From the sequence record OK570374: a stretch of 64,000 nt of DNA, one strand, 5' to 3'. Within the stretch, counting starts at the first letter, position 1. Each line of letters starts with the position of its first letter. The translations under genes and the position numbers were made by a program. The stretch is from Escherichia phage UoN_LG358_1. This document shows, in pieces, positions 1 to 52,162 of the stretch. The notes under the pieces were generated by a model. The model did not search any database, was not told the DNA's origin, and saw nothing but the letters and a program-made list of their open reading frames with translations.

Positions 1-2317
<2,317 letters not shown>

Positions 2318-44262: not shown

Positions 44263-46517
44263 TATAATTTACAAGCTGCACAGTCATCTGCTTTTGGTTG
44301 CTCAACTTCATAGTCATCTGTGCCAGAACCATCTCTAGTGTTATGATAATAGAGACTTTTTCCGCCAAAATACCAGAAGTAAAGTAGGTCATCAAGCATC
44401 ACGCTCATTGGTACTTTACCCTTTTCATAATTCTGAGGGTCATAGTAAGTATTAGCGGAAGCGCTTTGACACAAGAACTTGGTCATGATAGCAACTTGAG
44501 TTAGGTAAGGTTTGTTACCCTGTTTAGCCAATTTCCACGCATAATCATAAAGGTCTATGTTGTGCTCAATATTGGGCACGACTTGATTAAAGGAACCCTC
44601 TTTTGACTCTTTAACAGAGACTGGTCCACGCGGAGGTTCGATACCGTTTGTACTATTTGATACTTGGCTGCTTGACTCGCATGGCATGAGTGCAGATAAG
44701 GTGCTATTACGGATGCCGTAGTTAACCAAGTCTTTCCGCAGGCTCTCCCAGTCACACACATAATTGGGCGCTGCGATTTGGTCAATCTTTTTATTGTACC
44801 AGTCGATAGGTAATTCGCCTCTAGACCAACGAGTTTCTGAATAATATTCGCAAGGTCCTTTTTCTTTGGCGAGTTTAATTGAGGCTTTAATAAGTGCATA
44901 TTGTAATCTCTCAAATAATTCATGAGTTAAATCATTTGCGTCGGCATATGATGCAAAATTATCAGCCAACCAAGCAGCGTAGTTTGTAACACCTACACCT
45001 AATGCCCGCCGCTTCTTAGCTTTCAATGCTTCTTTTACAGGATAACCTTGATAGTCCAATAAATTATCTAAAGCACGAACTTGAACTTCTGCAAGTTCTT
45101 CAATCTTGTCTTGGTCCTGCCAGTCAAAATTACCCAACACAAATGCAGCTAATGTGCACAACGCAATTTCAGGGTCATCACTACCAACGTCTTTGGTCGG
45201 TAAAGCAATTTCTAAACAAAGATTACTCTGTTTAATTGGCGATGTTTCACGAATGAACGGAGTATAACGGTTCATATTATCAGTGAACGCTGGATACACT
45301 CGAGCCGTGCCAGAACGTTCTGTCATGAACAATTCAAACAATTCAAGAGCTTTGATGCGTTTCTTGCGAATAATTGGATTTTTTTCTAGTTCTTCATACA
45401 ATTCACGGAATTTATCTTCATCCCGGAAATAAGAATCGAACAATTCGCCATTAGCCACATCTGGACTGAACAGTGTGATGTACCCATTTTTACCGAGACG
45501 TTCCATCATCAAATCATTGATTTGCAGACCATAGTCTAGATGACGAATACGGTTTTCATCTACGCCTTTGTTGTTCTTTAATACCAACAGGTTTTCAACC
45601 TCAAGATGCCACATTGGATAATAAAGAGTAGCTGCACCACCACGTACACCGCCTTGAGAACAAGATTTTACTGCAGTCTGAAAATGTTTCCAGAAAGGAA
45701 TTACGCCAGTATGTTTTACTTCGCCATTACCAATTTTTGAGCCTTCAGCTCGAATCATACCGGCGTTGATGCCGATACCAGCTCGCTTGCTGATATACTT
45801 AATAATACTGTTACTTGCCGCATTAATAGAATTCAGTGAATCGCCAGCTTCAATAACTACACAAGAACTAAACTGACGAGTAGGAGTACGAGCCCCTGCC
45901 ATAATCGGTGTAGGCAATGAAATCTGTCGAGTAGATACAGCGTCATAAAAGCGAATAATATGAGCCAGACGATTTTCTGGTTCTTCTTGGTGTAGTGCCA
46001 TACCAATTAGCATGAATGCAAATTGAGGTGTCTCGTAAATTTTACCAGTTGAACGGTCTTTAACCAGATATTTTTCTTTGAGCTGCATCGCCCCAGCGTA
46101 AGTTAAATCAAAATCACGTTCGTGTTTGATTTTTGATTCCAAGAAAGTGATTTCTTCAGCTGAATACTTGGAGAGTAATTCTGAATCATATTTACCCTCA
46201 TTAACACAATAAGAAATGTGGTCAATAAAAGACGGCGGTTCGAATTGCCCGTACACTTCTTTGCGTAATGCGAACATAGCCAGGTTAGAAGCAACATATT
46301 GATAATCCGGTTCTTCTTTTGAAATGGAGTTTGCAGCTACTTTAATAGCAGCTTGTTGAATATCCTTAGTGCTGATTCCATCTTGGATATGGCTTTTAAT
46401 ACGCTCATATAATTCATATGGGTCAATTGAAGTACCTTCAGCGGCCCATACTAAAATCTTTTGAAGTTTGGATGGAATAAATTCCTGTTTAATTCCCGAT
46501 GATTTTACTACTTGCAT
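44262..46517 (-). CDS. nrdA: ribonucleotide reductase large subunit
   Basis: 751 aa (T4 NrdA about 754); position. Confidence 0.95.
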   Translation of the reverse strand: MQVVKSSGIKQEFIPSKLQKILVWAAEGTSIDPYELYERIKSHIQDGISTKDIQQAAIKVAANSISKEEPDYQYVASNLAMFALRKEVYGQFEPPSFIDHISYCVNEGKYDSELLSKYSAEEITFLESKIKHERDFDLTYAGAMQLKEKYLVKDRSTGKIYETPQFAFMLIGMALHQEEPENRLAHIIRFYDAVSTRQISLPTPIMAGARTPTRQFSSCVVIEAGDSLNSINAASNSIIKYISKRAGIGINAGMIRAEGSKIGNGEVKHTGVIPFWKHFQTAVKSCSQGGVRGGAATLYYPMWHLEVENLLVLKNNKGVDENRIRHLDYGLQINDLMMERLGKNGYITLFSPDVANGELFDSYFRDEDKFRELYEELEKNPIIRKKRIKALELFELFMTERSGTARVYPAFTDNMNRYTPFIRETSPIKQSNLCLEIALPTKDVGSDDPEIALCTLAAFVLGNFDWQDQDKIEELAEVQVRALDNLLDYQGYPVKEALKAKKRRALGVGVTNYAAWLADNFASYADANDLTHELFERLQYALIKASIKLAKEKGPCEYYSETRWSRGELPIDWYNKKIDQIAAPNYVCDWESLRKDLVNYGIRNSTLSALMPCESSSQVSNSTNGIEPPRGPVSVKESKEGSFNQVVPNIEHNIDLYDYAWKLAKQGNKPYLTQVAIMTKFLCQSASANTYYDPQNYEKGKVPMSVMLDDLLYFWYFGGKSLYYHNTRDGSGTDDYEVEQPKADDCAACKL

Positions 46518-46588
46518 TTTATATCCTTAGTTATCAGATAATTTATTTTATCATCAAAGACTTTTAGCTTATCGTTTCCTCAAAGACT

Positions 46589-46611
46589 AAAATGGCAGCC
46601 CGAAGGCTGCC
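46589..46611 (-). terminator. hairpin upstream of nrdA
   Basis: GGCAGCC-cgaa-GGCTGCC; short minus-strand U-run. Confidence 0.45.
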
Positions 46612-46631
46612 TGTAGTGTTATATTTATTAT

Positions 46632-46820
46632 TTAAGCTTCTATTAATACAACAACTTTAACTGGACTTCTGTTCATATCAATACTCAGAAATATTGATTG
46701 GATAATATAAAAATATCCATTAATCATTATTTGACCGCCTTCTTTCAATTCGCGACCAATATCACTTTCAGTTTCGGCAAATACTTTATCACCATGCTCT
46801 GATGTAAATTTAATAAGCAT
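46632..46820 (-). CDS. hypothetical protein
   Basis: 62-aa ORF with GAGGAA RBS between td and nrdA. Confidence 0.4.
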   Translation of the reverse strand: MLIKFTSEHGDKVFAETESDIGRELKEGGQIMINGYFYIIQSIFLSIDMNRSPVKVVVLIEA

Positions 46821-46829
46821 AATATTCCT

Positions 46830-46907
46830 CTATAGAAACAGATTCAACGAAATAATTATAATAAGAAAAATGATAAGCGCAATAGTTAGTTTGTTCATAG
46901 CAGTCAT
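46830..46907 (-). CDS. putative 25-aa hydrophobic peptide
   Basis: Not in track; MTAMNKLTIALIIFLIIIISLNLFL; ATG overlaps td stop (ATGA). Confidence 0.25.
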   Translation of the reverse strand: MTAMNKLTIALIIFLIIIISLNLFL

Positions 46908-47215
46908 ACGGCCATTTTTCCTTTAATTACTGGGTGGCTTTCATAGTTTTTAAGAATAAAGTCGTTTATCTTCATATGAGTACAAACCCAATATAACTGC
47001 ATTTCAGTATCCCAATCTTCAAAACTATCTGGAAAATTAATTTCCAGTTCGCATAACTCTTTTGGCTCTCTGCAAAGAATTTCTTTACACTGTTCTGTAT
47101 GGTTCAAATATATGTGGGTATTGCCGCCAGTAAATACTAGATGCCCTGGTTTTAACCCAGTCATTTTAGCTATGATATGAATTAAAGCTCCGTAAGACGC
47201 GATATTAAATGGTAG
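46904..47215 (-). CDS. td: thymidylate synthase, exon 2
   Basis: Begins LPFNIASYGAL.., continuing the ..QRSVDVFLG end of exon 1 (ThyA FLGLPFNIASY junction). Confidence 0.9.
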   Translation of the reverse strand, partial: LPFNIASYGALIHIIAKMTGLKPGHLVFTGGNTHIYLNHTEQCKEILCREPKELCELEINFPDSFEDWDTEMQLYWVCTHMKINDFILKNYESHPVIKGKMAV

Positions 47216-48227
47216 CATTGTGTTCAGCTGAGGACGTTAATCTCAGCCCGGAATTTATCCAGCTGCATGTCACCATGCAGAGCAGACTATATCTTCATCT
47301 CAATGAGATGTCTATCGTTTCGAGCCACTTGGCCCTACTCCCTAAAGGGATAGTCGTTCGGCATTTAGCAATAAAACCAGTTCCATTTATCAGATTTTAC
47401 ACGGTATGTAACTAAGCCTGAAGAAATCTCAAAATGTCTAGCAGCATCTGCGGCGCATTCAAAAATAATACCATCACATGAAATTTTCTTAATATTAGAT
47501 GGCTTTCTGCCCTTTGCCTTGTTAGACAATATTTCTCGTGTTTCTTTTGAATGTTCTTTACCGAAGAACGGATTACTTTGTCCTGAACGGTCTCTACAAT
47601 TTGAACAAGTTTTAAATGCTGGGCTTATTCTTTTCCCGCACTTGCAAAACTTATGTTTTTCTGGGTTCCACCGTCCATTTAATTCACCTGGTTTACCATA
47701 AATTACTTTACGTCCATCAATACCAAGTTTTTCCATCTTAGCTTTAACAGTAGCAGCTCGCTTTTTTATAATTTCTTTCTTTAATGGATAATTAGTAAAA
47801 ACATCTCCAAAAGAAGCATCTGCGATGTTATAACCATTTTGTTTTGAATTTAGTGTTTTAATCCAGAAATTTTCTCGTTCAATAATTATATCTTTTTCGT
47901 ATGGAACTTCTTCCAATACAGAACATTCAAATACATTACCATGTTTATTATAAGACCGTTGGAGTTTTATAGAATGATGTGCATTATTAGATAAATCGGA
48001 AAAATGACGTTTCCATCTTTTATCAAAATCCTTTGCACTTCCAACATAAATCTTATTGTTTAAAACATTTTTAATTTGATAAATTCCACTTTTCATAAAC
48101 ACCTCTAAATTATAGAAGTATTTATTAAAGGGCGGTCCTACACATTTAGCACGGGATTGTCTACGAGAGAGGTTCCCCGTTTAGATAGATTACAAGTATA
48201 AGTCACCTTATACCCAGGCCTAAATTA
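47216..48227 (-). mobile_element. group I self-splicing intron in td, carrying a homing endonuclease gene
   Basis: Intron 5' end reads TAATTTAGGCCTGGGTATAAGGTGACTTATACTTGTAATCTATCTAAACGGGG on the minus strand, matching the remembered T4 td intron; 3' end ..ATG before CTACCATTTAAT; about 1012 nt. Confidence 0.9.
47365..48096 (-). CDS. I-TevI: intron-encoded GIY-YIG homing endonuclease I-TevI-like
   Basis: Start at ATG 48096 (MKSGIYQIKN..KIYVGSA GIY-YIG); track ORF begins at an upstream GTG; C-terminal ..VTYRVKSDKWNWFY. Confidence 0.9.
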   Translation of the reverse strand: MKSGIYQIKNVLNNKIYVGSAKDFDKRWKRHFSDLSNNAHHSIKLQRSYNKHGNVFECSVLEEVPYEKDIIIERENFWIKTLNSKQNGYNIADASFGDVFTNYPLKKEIIKKRAATVKAKMEKLGIDGRKVIYGKPGELNGRWNPEKHKFCKCGKRISPAFKTCSNCRDRSGQSNPFFGKEHSKETREILSNKAKGRKPSNIKKISCDGIIFECAADAARHFEISSGLVTYRVKSDKWNWFYC

Positions 48228-48776
48228 ACCCAAGAAAACATCGACACTGCGTTGATACCACTGGAGGTCCAGAAACCCATTTCTTACGTTAAATTGATAT
48301 ACCATATGGCATGGTGGAAGCGCCATCTTAGAGAGCTCTAGAGGGTTCCAAGCTGTCACAATCTGCCTTCGGTCTGCCGGCATTTCTTTTATTCTATCAA
48401 TGACTAACTTCAATTGGTCCACGCCCATGAAATCACGCCATTGTTTACCATAAACCGGTCCTAGTTCACCGTCAGTATAACCCATCGAAACAGCTTGATT
48501 TTCATAATTATCATCCCAGACGGTTTTCCCTTCTGTTCGAGAACCATGTTGAATTTCGCGGAGGTCATCTACATTTGTTGAGCCAGATAAGAACCACAGC
48601 AATTCAGCAATGCACGATTTCCACGCGAGTTTCTTTGTTGTTACTGCGGGAAATCCTTCTTGTAAATCAAACCGAAGCTGAGTGCCAAATACAGCAATTG
48701 TTCCCGTGCCCGTACGATCATCAGTCTCATAGCCTTCGTCAAAAATGTGTTGAATTAGTTCTTGATATTGTTTCAT
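48228..48776 (-). CDS. td: thymidylate synthase, exon 1
   Basis: 183 codons ending ..DVFLG; stop codon of the track ORF is the first intron triplet; PPCH active-site motif. Confidence 0.9.
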
Positions 48777-49123
48777 TGTTTTCCAACTTTAAAGAGAATT
48801 TCAGCGCCTTTCTTTTCAAAACGTCCTTGCATCCAAAGGAGACCATTTTCAACTTTCATATAACCAAGATTAATATAGTCCAACATTTGACGATTACTGA
48901 AAAACGCTTTAAATGTTCCATGGTTAGAACGTACATATATACCATTAGTGCACGCAGAGTGGATATTCTCCAACGGCGCCCTAACCTCATAAAACCCGTG
49001 AGGAATAGTAACATATTTCTCTGGATTTCGTTTAAACTGGTCAATCGTAGGGGCCATTCCATCGATAACCAAAGCCCAGTTCTTTTGCTTCTCTTCAACA
49101 ATTAAATCTAATTTAGCAGTCAT
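48773..49123 (-). CDS. hypothetical protein inserted between frd and td
   Basis: 116-aa ORF; stop overlaps td start (ATGA); 12 nt after frd stop. Confidence 0.5.
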   Translation of the reverse strand: MTAKLDLIVEEKQKNWALVIDGMAPTIDQFKRNPEKYVTIPHGFYEVRAPLENIHSACTNGIYVRSNHGTFKAFFSNRQMLDYINLGYMKVENGLLWMQGRFEKKGAEILFKVGKQ

Positions 49124-49135
49124 ATTATTTCCAGT

Positions 49136-49729
49136 TTAAATTTTTACATAAACATCTTCTGAAATATTAGTAAGTTCGTCAATATTATACCAATGAGTCT
49201 CAACAAGTTCCATATCTTCACTGATATTCCATATAAAATCTGCTGAGAGTTTAATATCAGAATTTACACGGTGTTTTTTGCGAATAGTTGTGCATATAAT
49301 TTTATCTGCGTAAATTCTTGAATGCTCAATAATATGTGCGCCACCAATAACAGAATAATTGGCATCATCGCGTTGAATAAAACAATTATACCCAAAATCA
49401 TGCCCAGAAACTTGAACTTTATTACCTTCTAAAAATTGTTGAAACTGTGTTTCATTAATATAGAGCTCGGCAGTTTGTCCTGATTTAGTTTTTGCATAAG
49501 GACGAGAAAAATCTTGCACTACAATATGAGAACGTCCATGAAGTTTTCCTCTTAAGCTCATAAATGTTTTTGCACCCATAATAAGAACAGTATCTTTAGT
49601 TCTGGAAGCAAAATTTTGCATGTCTTGCTTGATATGTCCCCATGGAAGACCAGTGTTTAACCCAAACGCAAATTCATTTTTATTGTCGACAGTTTTAGTA
49701 GGGCAATACGCAAAAATTAACTGAATCAT
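49136..49729 (-). CDS. frd: dihydrofolate reductase
   Basis: 197 aa (T4 Frd 193); position upstream of td. Confidence 0.9.
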   Translation of the reverse strand: MIQLIFAYCPTKTVDNKNEFAFGLNTGLPWGHIKQDMQNFASRTKDTVLIMGAKTFMSLRGKLHGRSHIVVQDFSRPYAKTKSGQTAELYINETQFQQFLEGNKVQVSGHDFGYNCFIQRDDANYSVIGGAHIIEHSRIYADKIICTTIRKKHRVNSDIKLSADFIWNISEDMELVETHWYNIDELTNISEDVYVKI

Positions 49730-49824
49730 TATCCTTGCCTCATTTTACAATTAGGACAAATTCCACCTGCGAACAAAAGTCCGCTGCCGCAATATTTACA
49801 CTCCCAGTCGGTTAAAATTTTCAT
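49729..49824 (-). CDS. putative 31-aa zinc-ribbon peptide
   Basis: Not in track; MKILTDWECKYCGSGLLFAGGICPNCKMRQG with two CxxC pairs; AGGAA RBS; ATGA and TAATG overlaps with neighbours. Confidence 0.3.
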   Translation of the reverse strand: MKILTDWECKYCGSGLLFAGGICPNCKMRQG

Positions 49825-50030
49825 CTTAAGTTCCTAATACGTTCACGGATGATATTCAAAAACTGCCGTGTCATTTCGATGTTAGCTTCTCGCCATAAGA
49901 AGTTACTATTCATATCATTATATTCCGCGGTCACATTGTCGTTAAGCTCACATAATGCACACAATTTGCCGTGTTTTACTGCATCAGAAATTGCTTTATC
50001 AAACTCTTCTTTTGACATTGTAATTTGCAT
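49821..50030 (-). CDS. hypothetical protein
   Basis: 69-aa ORF. Confidence 0.4.
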   Translation of the reverse strand: MQITMSKEEFDKAISDAVKHGKLCALCELNDNVTAEYNDMNSNFLWREANIEMTRQFLNIIRERIRNLR

Positions 50031-50661: not shown

Positions 50662-50691
50662 ATAGTATCATAACCATAACCCGTTGTAAAC
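50662..50691 (-). promoter_or_regulatory. early-type promoter (GTTTACA-N17-TACTAT)
   Basis: Minus strand; within 45-bp repeat 50646..50691. Confidence 0.5.
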
Positions 50692-50693
50692 GG

Positions 50694-51074
50694 TCATTTG
50701 AAAATTTTTTGTAAAAGTTCAATGATTTCGTCTACGTTTTGTTTTGTAACAACACAATGAATTTTAGTTACACCGTCAGTATCTTTACATTCGTCGTCAA
50801 GAACTGGTTCTTCATATTCGCGAAAGCAATAGAACTCATTATCGTAAAGTTCAAAATAACAATCACCTAGACCATCGTCGCAAAAGCACTCACCATTAGC
50901 GCAGACAATTTCAGTTACAAAATATTGGTTGTCAAATAATTCTATAGATTTTACTTCAAACCAACCGCCATTTTCGTGGATAATATCTACCATCTCAGTA
51001 TTATTCAAAGGGCTTAAGCCAATAAAATCATTAATAAGCTCTGGGACTAGTTCGTATTTTTTGCCTATTTTCAT
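50694..51074 (-). CDS. hypothetical acidic Cys-rich protein
   Basis: 126-aa ORF, D/E- and C-rich. Confidence 0.45.
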   Translation of the reverse strand: MKIGKKYELVPELINDFIGLSPLNNTEMVDIIHENGGWFEVKSIELFDNQYFVTEIVCANGECFCDDGLGDCYFELYDNEFYCFREYEEPVLDDECKDTDGVTKIHCVVTKQNVDEIIELLQKIFK

Positions 51075-51088
51075 TTTGATTTCCTCAA

Positions 51089-51316
51089 TTATTCTTTAAT
51101 CAAACCCATGTAAAACATTTTATCTTCAGGTTCCATGCCATCGCAGTACTCAATTTCCATAAAACGATTAATAGCTTTTAAAGGACCATTAATGACAACG
51201 TTCATGTTCCATGATTTGGAATTCTGTGAATTAGCGATACGAAGTTCTGGGTATCGATTACGAATAACTTCTTCAATGTATTCAAAATCTACAACATCAA
51301 TATCAACACTAGCCAT
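51089..51316 (-). CDS. hypothetical acidic protein
   Basis: 75 aa; early promoter 51347..51376; GAGGAA RBS. Confidence 0.45.
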
Positions 51317-51346
51317 TTTATTTTCCTCGTTTGTTTTGATAGGGTT

Positions 51347-51376
51347 ATAGTATCATAACCATAACCCATTGTAAAC
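51347..51376 (-). promoter_or_regulatory. early-type promoter (GTTTACA-N17-TACTAT)
   Basis: Minus strand; within the second copy of the 45-bp repeat (51331..51376). Confidence 0.5.
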
Positions 51377-51378
51377 AA

Positions 51379-51636
51379 TTAATTGATATCACTCATATAC
51401 ATTTCGATATCTTCATATTCGCAAATTTCCAAATACTCACGGATATCTTCAACTTCACCAATGATTTCAACTAAAGGCCATCCGCCAGCGGGTCCACGTT
51501 CTGCTATAACGTTAAACTCCAATTTACCAGGAAGAATTTCCATGAACCGAGTGCAATCATCAAATTCTAAATCAATAATCATTCCGCCTTCGTCTTTGAT
51601 AATTTCACATACTAAGTCAAGTTCTAAACGTGCCAT
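51379..51636 (-). CDS. hypothetical acidic protein (MARLELD paralog A)
   Basis: Start at second ATG (AAGGAA RBS); MARLELDLV..GGWP; own early promoter. Confidence 0.45.
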   Translation of the reverse strand: MARLELDLVCEIIKDEGGMIIDLEFDDCTRFMEILPGKLEFNVIAERGPAGGWPLVEIIGEVEDIREYLEICEYEDIEMYMSDIN

Positions 51637-51667
51637 GATATTTTCCTTCATTTGTTTTGATAAGGTA

Positions 51668-51697
51668 ATAGTAACACAGTTTAAAGCGGATGTAAAC
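51668..51697 (-). promoter_or_regulatory. early-type promoter (GTTTACA-N17-TACTAT)
   Basis: Minus strand; upstream of MARLELD paralog A. Confidence 0.5.
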
Positions 51698-51795
51698 AGT
51701 TAATTGCAAATTTCTGCATCAACTTTACTCTTTCACAACTTAATTCATTGCCTAGAAAAATCATATACAATAGTCATTTGAACTCAATAACATCG

Positions 51796-51826
51796 TATGA
51801 GGTTATACCATAACTATAACCTCATA
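51796..51826. other. perfect 12-bp hairpin/palindrome
   Basis: TATGAGGTTATA-ccataac-TATAACCTCATA; no flanking U-run. Confidence 0.45.
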
Positions 51827-51840
51827 ATGTAGTATACGTA

Positions 51841-52101
51841 TTATTGTTCCATAAATTCATCTAGCAACCAATCAATGTCTTCCCATTGATTATCTTCAAG
51901 CCATTTGCGGATATTTTTTTCAGACCCGCGAAGATAAATCACTGGCCAGCCGCCGCCGGTGCCTTCTTCGATTATAAGGTCAAAATCAAGACCATGGTCA
52001 ACATCATAAAAACGGCTTCCATCCTCAAAAATTAAATCAGTTGCAATTCCACGCTCATTGCGGTGAACTTCAGCTACAATATCAAGTTCTAAACGTGCCA
52101 T
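51841..52101 (-). CDS. hypothetical acidic protein (MARLELD paralog B)
   Basis: Start at second ATG (GAGGAA RBS); MARLELDIV..GGWP; own early promoter. Confidence 0.45.
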   Translation of the reverse strand: MARLELDIVAEVHRNERGIATDLIFEDGSRFYDVDHGLDFDLIIEEGTGGGWPVIYLRGSEKNIRKWLEDNQWEDIDWLLDEFMEQ

Positions 52102-52132
52102 TTTCAATTTCCTCATTTGTTTTGATGAGATA

Positions 52133-52162
52133 ATAGTAACACAGTTTTTGGAGGATGTAAAC
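52133..52162 (-). promoter_or_regulatory. early-type promoter (GTTTACA-N17-TACTAT)
   Basis: Minus strand; upstream of MARLELD paralog B. Confidence 0.5.

Follow-up and report, generated by a model that had tools for sequence, protein, structure and literature searches.

In the reference sequence of phage T4, the coordinates of frd (145109-145690) and td (ending at 145112) share 4 nucleotides (nt), and no gene lies between the two. In contrast, S16, CC31, Moon and X20 carry two small genes between frd and td, which translation and alignment identified as paralogs of each other (gp154/gp155 in S16, CC31p238/p239 in CC31 and gp199/gp200 in Moon). The window analysed here, a stretch of 64,000 nt from Escherichia phage UoN_LG358_1 (sequence record OK570374), has a single open reading frame (ORF) of 116 amino acids (aa) at this junction. 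The original prediction, made from the sequence alone, had given the T4 gene order correctly and described the ORF as an extra gene inserted into the operon. The gene is indeed extra relative to T4, but the idea of an insertion is unsupported, as the family is found at this position in many genera. When the junction was compared across T-even genomes, the slot was widely occupied and T4 proved to be the exception.

The predicted coordinates were exact, as confirmed by the ORF listing and by Pfam matches to both flanking genes. The ORF, frd and td all lie on the minus strand, which had been left unstated. On this strand the upstream junction reads ...gtaaaaattTAA-actggaaataat-ATGact..., with the TAA stop codon of frd and the ATG of the ORF separated by the 12-nt spacer actggaaataat, while the 3' end of the ORF reads ...ggaaaacaATGAaacaa, where the TGA of the ORF overlaps the ATG of td (caATGAaa). 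Both the 12-nt distance and the ATGA overlap had accordingly been read correctly, and the tight spacing and ATGA coupling to td agree with the description of the ORF as embedded in the frd-td unit.

In a tblastn search of 50,697 phage records, the ORF protein matched 119, with Salmonella phage STP4-a (100%) and S16 (99%) as the best matches, and a 7-kb region was 99.97% identical to STP4-a. The same protein sequence has been deposited as AHJ86820.1 and AEO97157.1 (S16 gp154, UniProt M1EAS2). At odds with the prediction, the gene is thus a conserved and annotated neighbour of td in reference phages, always as 'hypothetical protein' (STP4a_223, S16 gp154, CC31p238 and Moon gp200). It is already known in this form and already grouped as a PHROG and, being deposited and annotated in hundreds of relatives, carries little weight as a discovery.

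The length of the ORF was weak evidence for a gene, since a shuffled 64-kb window would by chance contain about 3 stretches of 116 codons or more without a stop. This, along with the weak Shine-Dalgarno sequence, would be compatible with an untranslated chance ORF, an explanation that the conservation pattern refutes and that we consider practically negligible. Compared with S16, 5 synonymous and 0 non-synonymous differences were found (Nei-Gojobori method, as for all such comparisons here). The ratio of non-synonymous to synonymous substitution rates (dN/dS) was 0.14-0.30 against SEA1 and STML-198 and 0.12-0.29 in the deep comparisons with Moon, CC31 and Marfa, and the overall range was 0.11-0.30. 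Because of this range and the homology in 119 phage records, sequence comparison marks the ORF as a genuine gene. The very confident AlphaFold2 fold, obtained from just 29 sequences, likewise argues against a chance ORF. A second ORF of 176 aa lies antisense to the gene (48575..49105, plus strand), overlapping both it and the 5' end of td. In contrast to the 116-aa gene, it is intact only in STP4-a, S16 and STML-198 and interrupted in SEA1, Moon, CC31, Marfa, X20, TG1 and 92A1, and it was rejected as spurious since it is not conserved in any other orthologous locus.

Two paralog types in the frd-td slot

Homology searches placed the protein in PHROG 1928 (function unknown), with residues 2-116 aligned to positions 3-121 of the 126-position profile (E 5.3e-38), and gave no match to any characterised protein. 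The short, T6 and Jiaodavirus types of the family matched phrog_1928 too. With the other members of this group the ORF shares its length, the invariant W, G-x-Y and G-R-F-x-K-x-G residues and the frd-td location. No essential difference was seen; what distinguishes it is that the long copy alone is kept, that it starts with ATG as opposed to the TTG of S16, and that one loop patch is divergent.

Family members were present between frd and td in Gelderlandvirus, Moonvirus, Karamvirus, Marfavirus, Winklervirus, Tegunavirus, Roskildevirus, Jiaodavirus and many Tequatrovirus, including T6, and this slot was the location of the family in every locus examined. The long type comprises proteins of 115-123 aa, including the 116-aa ORF, while the short type (103-113 aa) lacks a segment of about 20 residues, 'ALVIDGxAPTIEQYKRNPxKY'. 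Common to both are the motifs QKxW, HGxY and GRFxKxGxExxF, and W16, G43, G87, G100, F102, K104 and G106 are invariant in 36 sequences. Tandem paralogs are only about 25% identical, and a neighbour-joining tree separated a long clade from a short clade. A short-type query matched 610 phage records (tblastn), including T6, RB18, Shfl2 and many other Tequatrovirus. In T6, the gene between frd and td encodes 115 aa (AXN58269, 'RB32ORF229c') and matched the family profile with E 2e-16 and phrog_1928 with E 8e-36.

The stop codon overlaps the td start in the window, S16, CC31 and Moon, while the other members stop directly before td or a few nt short of it. Besides T4, frd and td abut directly in Gaprivervirus CJ20, Slopekvirus KP15 and Biquartavirus SW69-9. 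Krischvirus ECD7 (gp230, 89 aa) and Acinetobacter phage Ac42 (Ac42p234, 65 aa) have other ORFs in the same slot, whose sequences are unrelated to the family (no family-profile match); the junction therefore tolerates small inserts. T4 is atypical at this position, and expectations based on T4 consequently mislead there.

Several loci depart from the simple pattern, and some records leave family members unannotated or truncated. Klebsiella phage vB_KpnM_GF (Jiaodavirus, MK421971.1) contains an unannotated short-type member in a 293-nt gap between frd and td (locus L012, 2578-2895; family profile E 8e-21, phrog_1928 E 4e-29). In Klebsiella phage Marfa, a 31-codon stretch in the 127-nt gap between frd and gp176, upstream of the long copy, matched the family profile with E 5e-4 and 16 bits (locus L006, 1922-2014) and may, tentatively, be a decayed remnant of the short paralog; an unrelated 68-aa ORF (gp177) lies between the long copy and td of this phage. 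Erwinia phage Cronus (Roskildevirus) has the order frd, 144-aa long type, 103-aa short type, td (locus L019, 2530-3268). This paralog order is opposite to that of S16, CC31, Moon and X20, which implies rearrangement or independent acquisition. The long type starts with TTG in S16, SEA1 and STML-198. The records of Salmonella phage SEA1 (locus L010, 2501-2848) and CF-SP2 give a truncated version of 93 aa that begins at an internal Met, probably because the start was mis-called.

No family in Pfam or NCBIfam matched the ORF, in line with the prediction, which had recognised no motif in it, and scans of all 29 family members against Pfam, NCBIfam and PADLOC gave nothing consistent. PADLOC-DB yielded 0 families for the long and short paralogs alike, and the best hit of a sequence-profile search of the PDB was a short chance match to endonuclease IV (E 1). 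When 1.8 billion cluster representatives were searched exhaustively with phmmer, there were 14 matches, of which 12 were genuine clusters, all from phages. Two matches were dropped: P0009 because it is a low-complexity repeat, and P0012 because this repeat protein of 1959 aa shares only 'TIPHGxYEVR' with the family. In two profile searches covering 5.8 billion proteins, all matches were small proteins standing alone, without Pfam domains, fusions or annotated homologs. By these searches the family is confined to phages. Further paralogs were sought in the 64-kb window and in the frd-nrdA region of T4, and none were found. Literature on STP4-a, RB32ORF229c, phrog_1928 and frd-td offered no functional information.

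Deletion and proposed losses at the junction

Relative to S16, about 310 bp are absent from the window, as shown by blastn and junction alignment. The missing segment runs from the last frd codons to just upstream of the long copy and comprises the short paralog gp155. The deletion altered the C-terminus of Frd (…DVYVKI versus …DVYERA) and the start codon of the long copy, which is TTG in S16 and ATG here. Judged from this alignment, the 12-nt spacer is the scar of the short-paralog deletion. S16 is the closest relative, and with one junction gene fewer than S16 the locus is reduced, not expanded.

The original prediction described the gene as inserted. If this is taken to mean that a foreign or mobile gene recently entered the operon in this particular phage, the reading is very improbable. 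The absence of the gene from T4 and the mobile homing-endonuclease intron nearby in td might suggest such an event. However, the same slot holds orthologs in at least nine genera, and this survey of synteny refutes the reading. Moreover, the junction shows a deletion relative to S16, the ORF has neither an endonuclease nor a transposase domain and is strictly syntenic across genera, and both its GC content and its GC content at third codon positions lie between those of its neighbours.

The most economical account of the distribution is an ancestral order of frd, one or more paralogs and td in Tevenvirinae-like phages, followed by repeated losses, including that in T4. An old tandem duplication would have produced the long and short types, the family would be ancestral to the slot, and its loss would be complete in T4 and partial in STP4-a, where the long copy alone is kept. 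Cassettes may also have been exchanged through recombination between the conserved flanking genes. The family would in this account consist of two old tandem paralog types that have been lost repeatedly.

Predicted fold and candidate functions

The AlphaFold2 model was built on an alignment of 29 sequences and reached a mean predicted local distance difference test score of 92.9 and a predicted template modelling score of 0.84, with no residue below 70. The order of its elements (Table 1) fits the beta1-beta2-beta3-helix-beta4-beta5 arrangement of the OB-fold, as far as secondary-structure order goes. A structure search returned weak matches, mostly OB-fold domains, while no sequence-profile match to a known OB family was obtained (Pfam on the 29 members; best PDB profile E 1). 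We infer from the model a small OB-like beta-barrel. Its predicted strand order resembles that of the OB-fold domains of SCOP b.40.4 (RPA, SSB, PriB, Stn1/Ten1 and the anticodon-binding domains of aminoacyl-tRNA synthetases), and the protein is like these in its basic isoelectric point (pI) and in the placement of conserved aromatic and basic residues. The family as a whole is aromatic-rich and mostly basic (pI 8.5-9.5, with exceptions).

The conserved residues are located in the beta1-beta2 loop (Q13, K14, W16), at the start of beta2 (H42, G43, Y45) and in the beta4-beta5 hairpin (G100, R101, F102, K104, G106). In canonical OB-folds, these three regions form the ligand-binding face. Ligand binding is the functional proposal favoured here, if weakly, on the indirect evidence of the basic pI and the positions of these residues; the residues could just as well be structural. 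Tentatively, and with somewhat less than even confidence, we read the ORF as a genuine, translated but dispensable accessory gene from a family that has been duplicated and lost, encoding an OB-like, ligand-binding barrel made together with Frd and Td. The gene would be transcribed with frd and td and placed for translational coupling to td. The ligand bound by its product would most likely be single-stranded nucleic acid or a molecule resembling a nucleotide, and the binding surface would be the canonical OB face, made up of the conserved QKxW loop, HGxY strand and GRFxKxG hairpin. The enlarged beta1-beta2 loop of the long type, with its conserved PTIxQ[YF]KRxPxxY motif, could add specificity. 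Shown here are the reality of the gene, its family and the distribution of that family, the paralogy, the deletion and the confidence of the fold model; the OB-fold assignment, the ligand binding and a possible connection with thymidylate metabolism are inferred. The confident OB-like model leads to a hypothesis that can be tested, namely that this widespread T-even gene encodes a protein that binds nucleic acid or another ligand.

The closest functional analogy found is with MotB and MotB.1 of T4, which are made early in T-even phages and whose C-terminal domain is predicted to be an OB-fold; MotB binds DNA non-specifically (PMC7827196). The likeness, by analogy, is that of small early T-even proteins whose paralogous genes lie side by side in a 'non-essential' region and vary in copy number among phages, and for which an OB-fold is predicted. 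MotB differs in its genomic location, its extra KOW domain and its OB subtype, which is cold-shock/eIF5A-like. The family profile scored -0.4 to -1.6 bits against T4 MotB, MotB.1 and MotB.2, indicating no detectable sequence relationship.

One stretch of the protein is variable even among close relatives. At about 48950-48970 on the minus strand, STP4-a and S16 encode 'ENIHSACTNG', where SEA1 and STML-198 have 'EH[IV]WA[GA]DNG'. The patch consists of a 3-nt indel and a cluster of substitutions, which remove a Trp conserved in most long-type members. Sequence comparison marks it as a hypervariable loop of limited extent, the rest of the protein being conserved.

Replacement of this Trp in STP4-a and S16 would suit a host-takeover or counter-defence factor, in which the barrel binds and neutralises a protein of the host, for instance a defence sensor or an enzyme of nucleotide metabolism, and the adjacency to td is a historical accident. 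This is the main rival to ligand binding, possible though doubtful in our estimate. It would also agree with the patchy occurrence of the gene in close relatives (present in T6 but not in T4, and in two copies in S16 against one in STP4-a), with the divergence of the tandem paralogs to about 25% identity and their reversed order in Cronus, and with the strict restriction of the family to phages (the 12 real clusters among 1.8 billion representatives). Several of the OB-fold matches are, furthermore, protein-protein dimerisation modules (RPA14/32, Stn1-Ten1). However, no similarity to a catalogued defence-related family (PADLOC) or to a characterised protein was found, a dN/dS of 0.1-0.3 reflects ordinary purifying selection with no overall positive selection, and the slot is conserved over deep divergence.

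The constant position between frd and td, inside the 32-frd-td-nrdA cluster, could alternatively point to an accessory subunit or adaptor of the deoxynucleoside triphosphate (dNTP) synthesis complex, binding Td and/or Frd or linking both to gp32 and the replisome. The overlap of the stop codon with the td start in the window, S16, CC31 and Moon and the heterodimerising subunits among the OB-like matches would be consistent with such a role. Nevertheless, KP15, CJ20 and SW69-9 lack the gene, as does T4, the phage used to define the dNTP synthetase complex. In Marfa the long copy is split from td by an unrelated ORF, and the T6 member is followed by a spacer of 44 nt, containing a promoter-like element, before td begins. 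We therefore regard a subunit associated with Td or Frd as improbable, and as less likely than either the OB-ligand or the counter-defence reading.

A bolder version of ligand binding, and a long shot, is that PHROG 1928 represents an unrecognised, highly divergent OB-fold family that binds single-stranded nucleic acid or the td/frd mRNA and tunes or tethers the synthesis of thymidylate in the majority of T4-like phages, with the long and short paralogs perhaps heterodimerising like RPA14/32 and Stn1-Ten1. If so, this layer would have been overlooked because the model phage T4 happens to have lost PHROG 1928.

Gene neighbourhood, promoter-like sites and the td intron

The features of the locus and the elements of the model are collected in Table 1. 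The ORF forms part of the 32-frd-td-nrdA cluster, and the tight spacing and the ATGA overlap would mean that it is co-transcribed with frd and td and that its translation may be coupled to that of td.

Table 1 Features of the frd-td locus in the window and secondary-structure elements of the AlphaFold2 (AF2) model of the 116-aa protein
Feature	Position	Strand	Remarks
Promoter consensus match, sigma-70/T4-early-like, upstream of frd	50662..50690	(-)	TTTACA-17-TACTAT with TG
frd, dihydrofolate reductase, upstream gene of the unit	49136..49729	(-)	197-aa ORF; Pfam DHFR_1, E 1.5e-16; STP4a_224
Spacer, 12 nt, frd stop to ORF start	49124..49135	(-)	Weak Shine-Dalgarno-like GGA
ORF between frd and td	48773..49123	(-)	116 aa + stop codon, ATG start; ORF listing; long-type member of PHROG 1928; equals STP4a_223 / S16 gp154
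td exon 1	48225..48776	(-)	183-aa ORF; Pfam Thymidylat_synt, E 1.2e-64, profile positions 1-175 of 266; STP4a_222
I-TevI-like GIY-YIG homing endonuclease in td intron	47365..48102	(-)	Pfam GIY-YIG, I-TevI_ZnF, I-TevI_DNA-bd; STP4a_221
td exon 2	46904..47218	(-)	ORF translation; STP4a_220, thymidylate synthase
AF2 strand	residues 3-10		
AF2 long loop with short helix	helix 27-36		
AF2 strand	residues 43-50		
AF2 strands	residues 54-56, 62-66, 70-73		
AF2 helix	residues 77-86		
AF2 strands	residues 89-92, 95-105		
AF2 strand	residues 108-113		

Further promoter consensus matches on the minus strand lie at 50382-50355, at 49945-49917 (the closest to frd) and at other sites further upstream; the total of all matches was not above shuffle expectation in this consensus scan. 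No terminator-like site was seen between the upstream promoter matches and td exon 1. A search for MotA-box middle promoters gave no site near the ORF and a total for the window at chance level. The promoter-like cassette TTTACA-17-TACTAT preceded by TG occurs in four copies on the minus strand (at 52161, 51696, 51375 and 50690), upstream of small frd.1/.2/.3-like ORFs. The region 50662-52161 also contains internal repeats of 63 nt with 95% identity (blastn). These elements resemble intergenic early-promoter modules present in several copies. The T6 family member is separated from td by a spacer of 44 nt (locus L017, 3349-3392), which contains TAGCTTCA followed by TATAAT about 12 nt on. This pattern resembles a MotA-dependent middle promoter placed immediately before td; neither T4 nor STP4-a has a spacer of this type.

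The td gene of the window (46904-48776, minus strand) is split, as in T4, by an intron with an I-TevI-like homing endonuclease, which is context and lies outside the family of the 116-aa ORF. The listed ORF of td exon 1 runs on into the intron. An Rfam scan of 46500-50000 at the gathering threshold gave no match, not even to the td group I intron. In the very close relatives S16 and STML-198, td is intronless (861 nt), while in SEA1 it is split by a gap of just 245 nt with no endonuclease annotated. These differences indicate that the presence of the intron and of its homing endonuclease gene varies within Gelderlandvirus.
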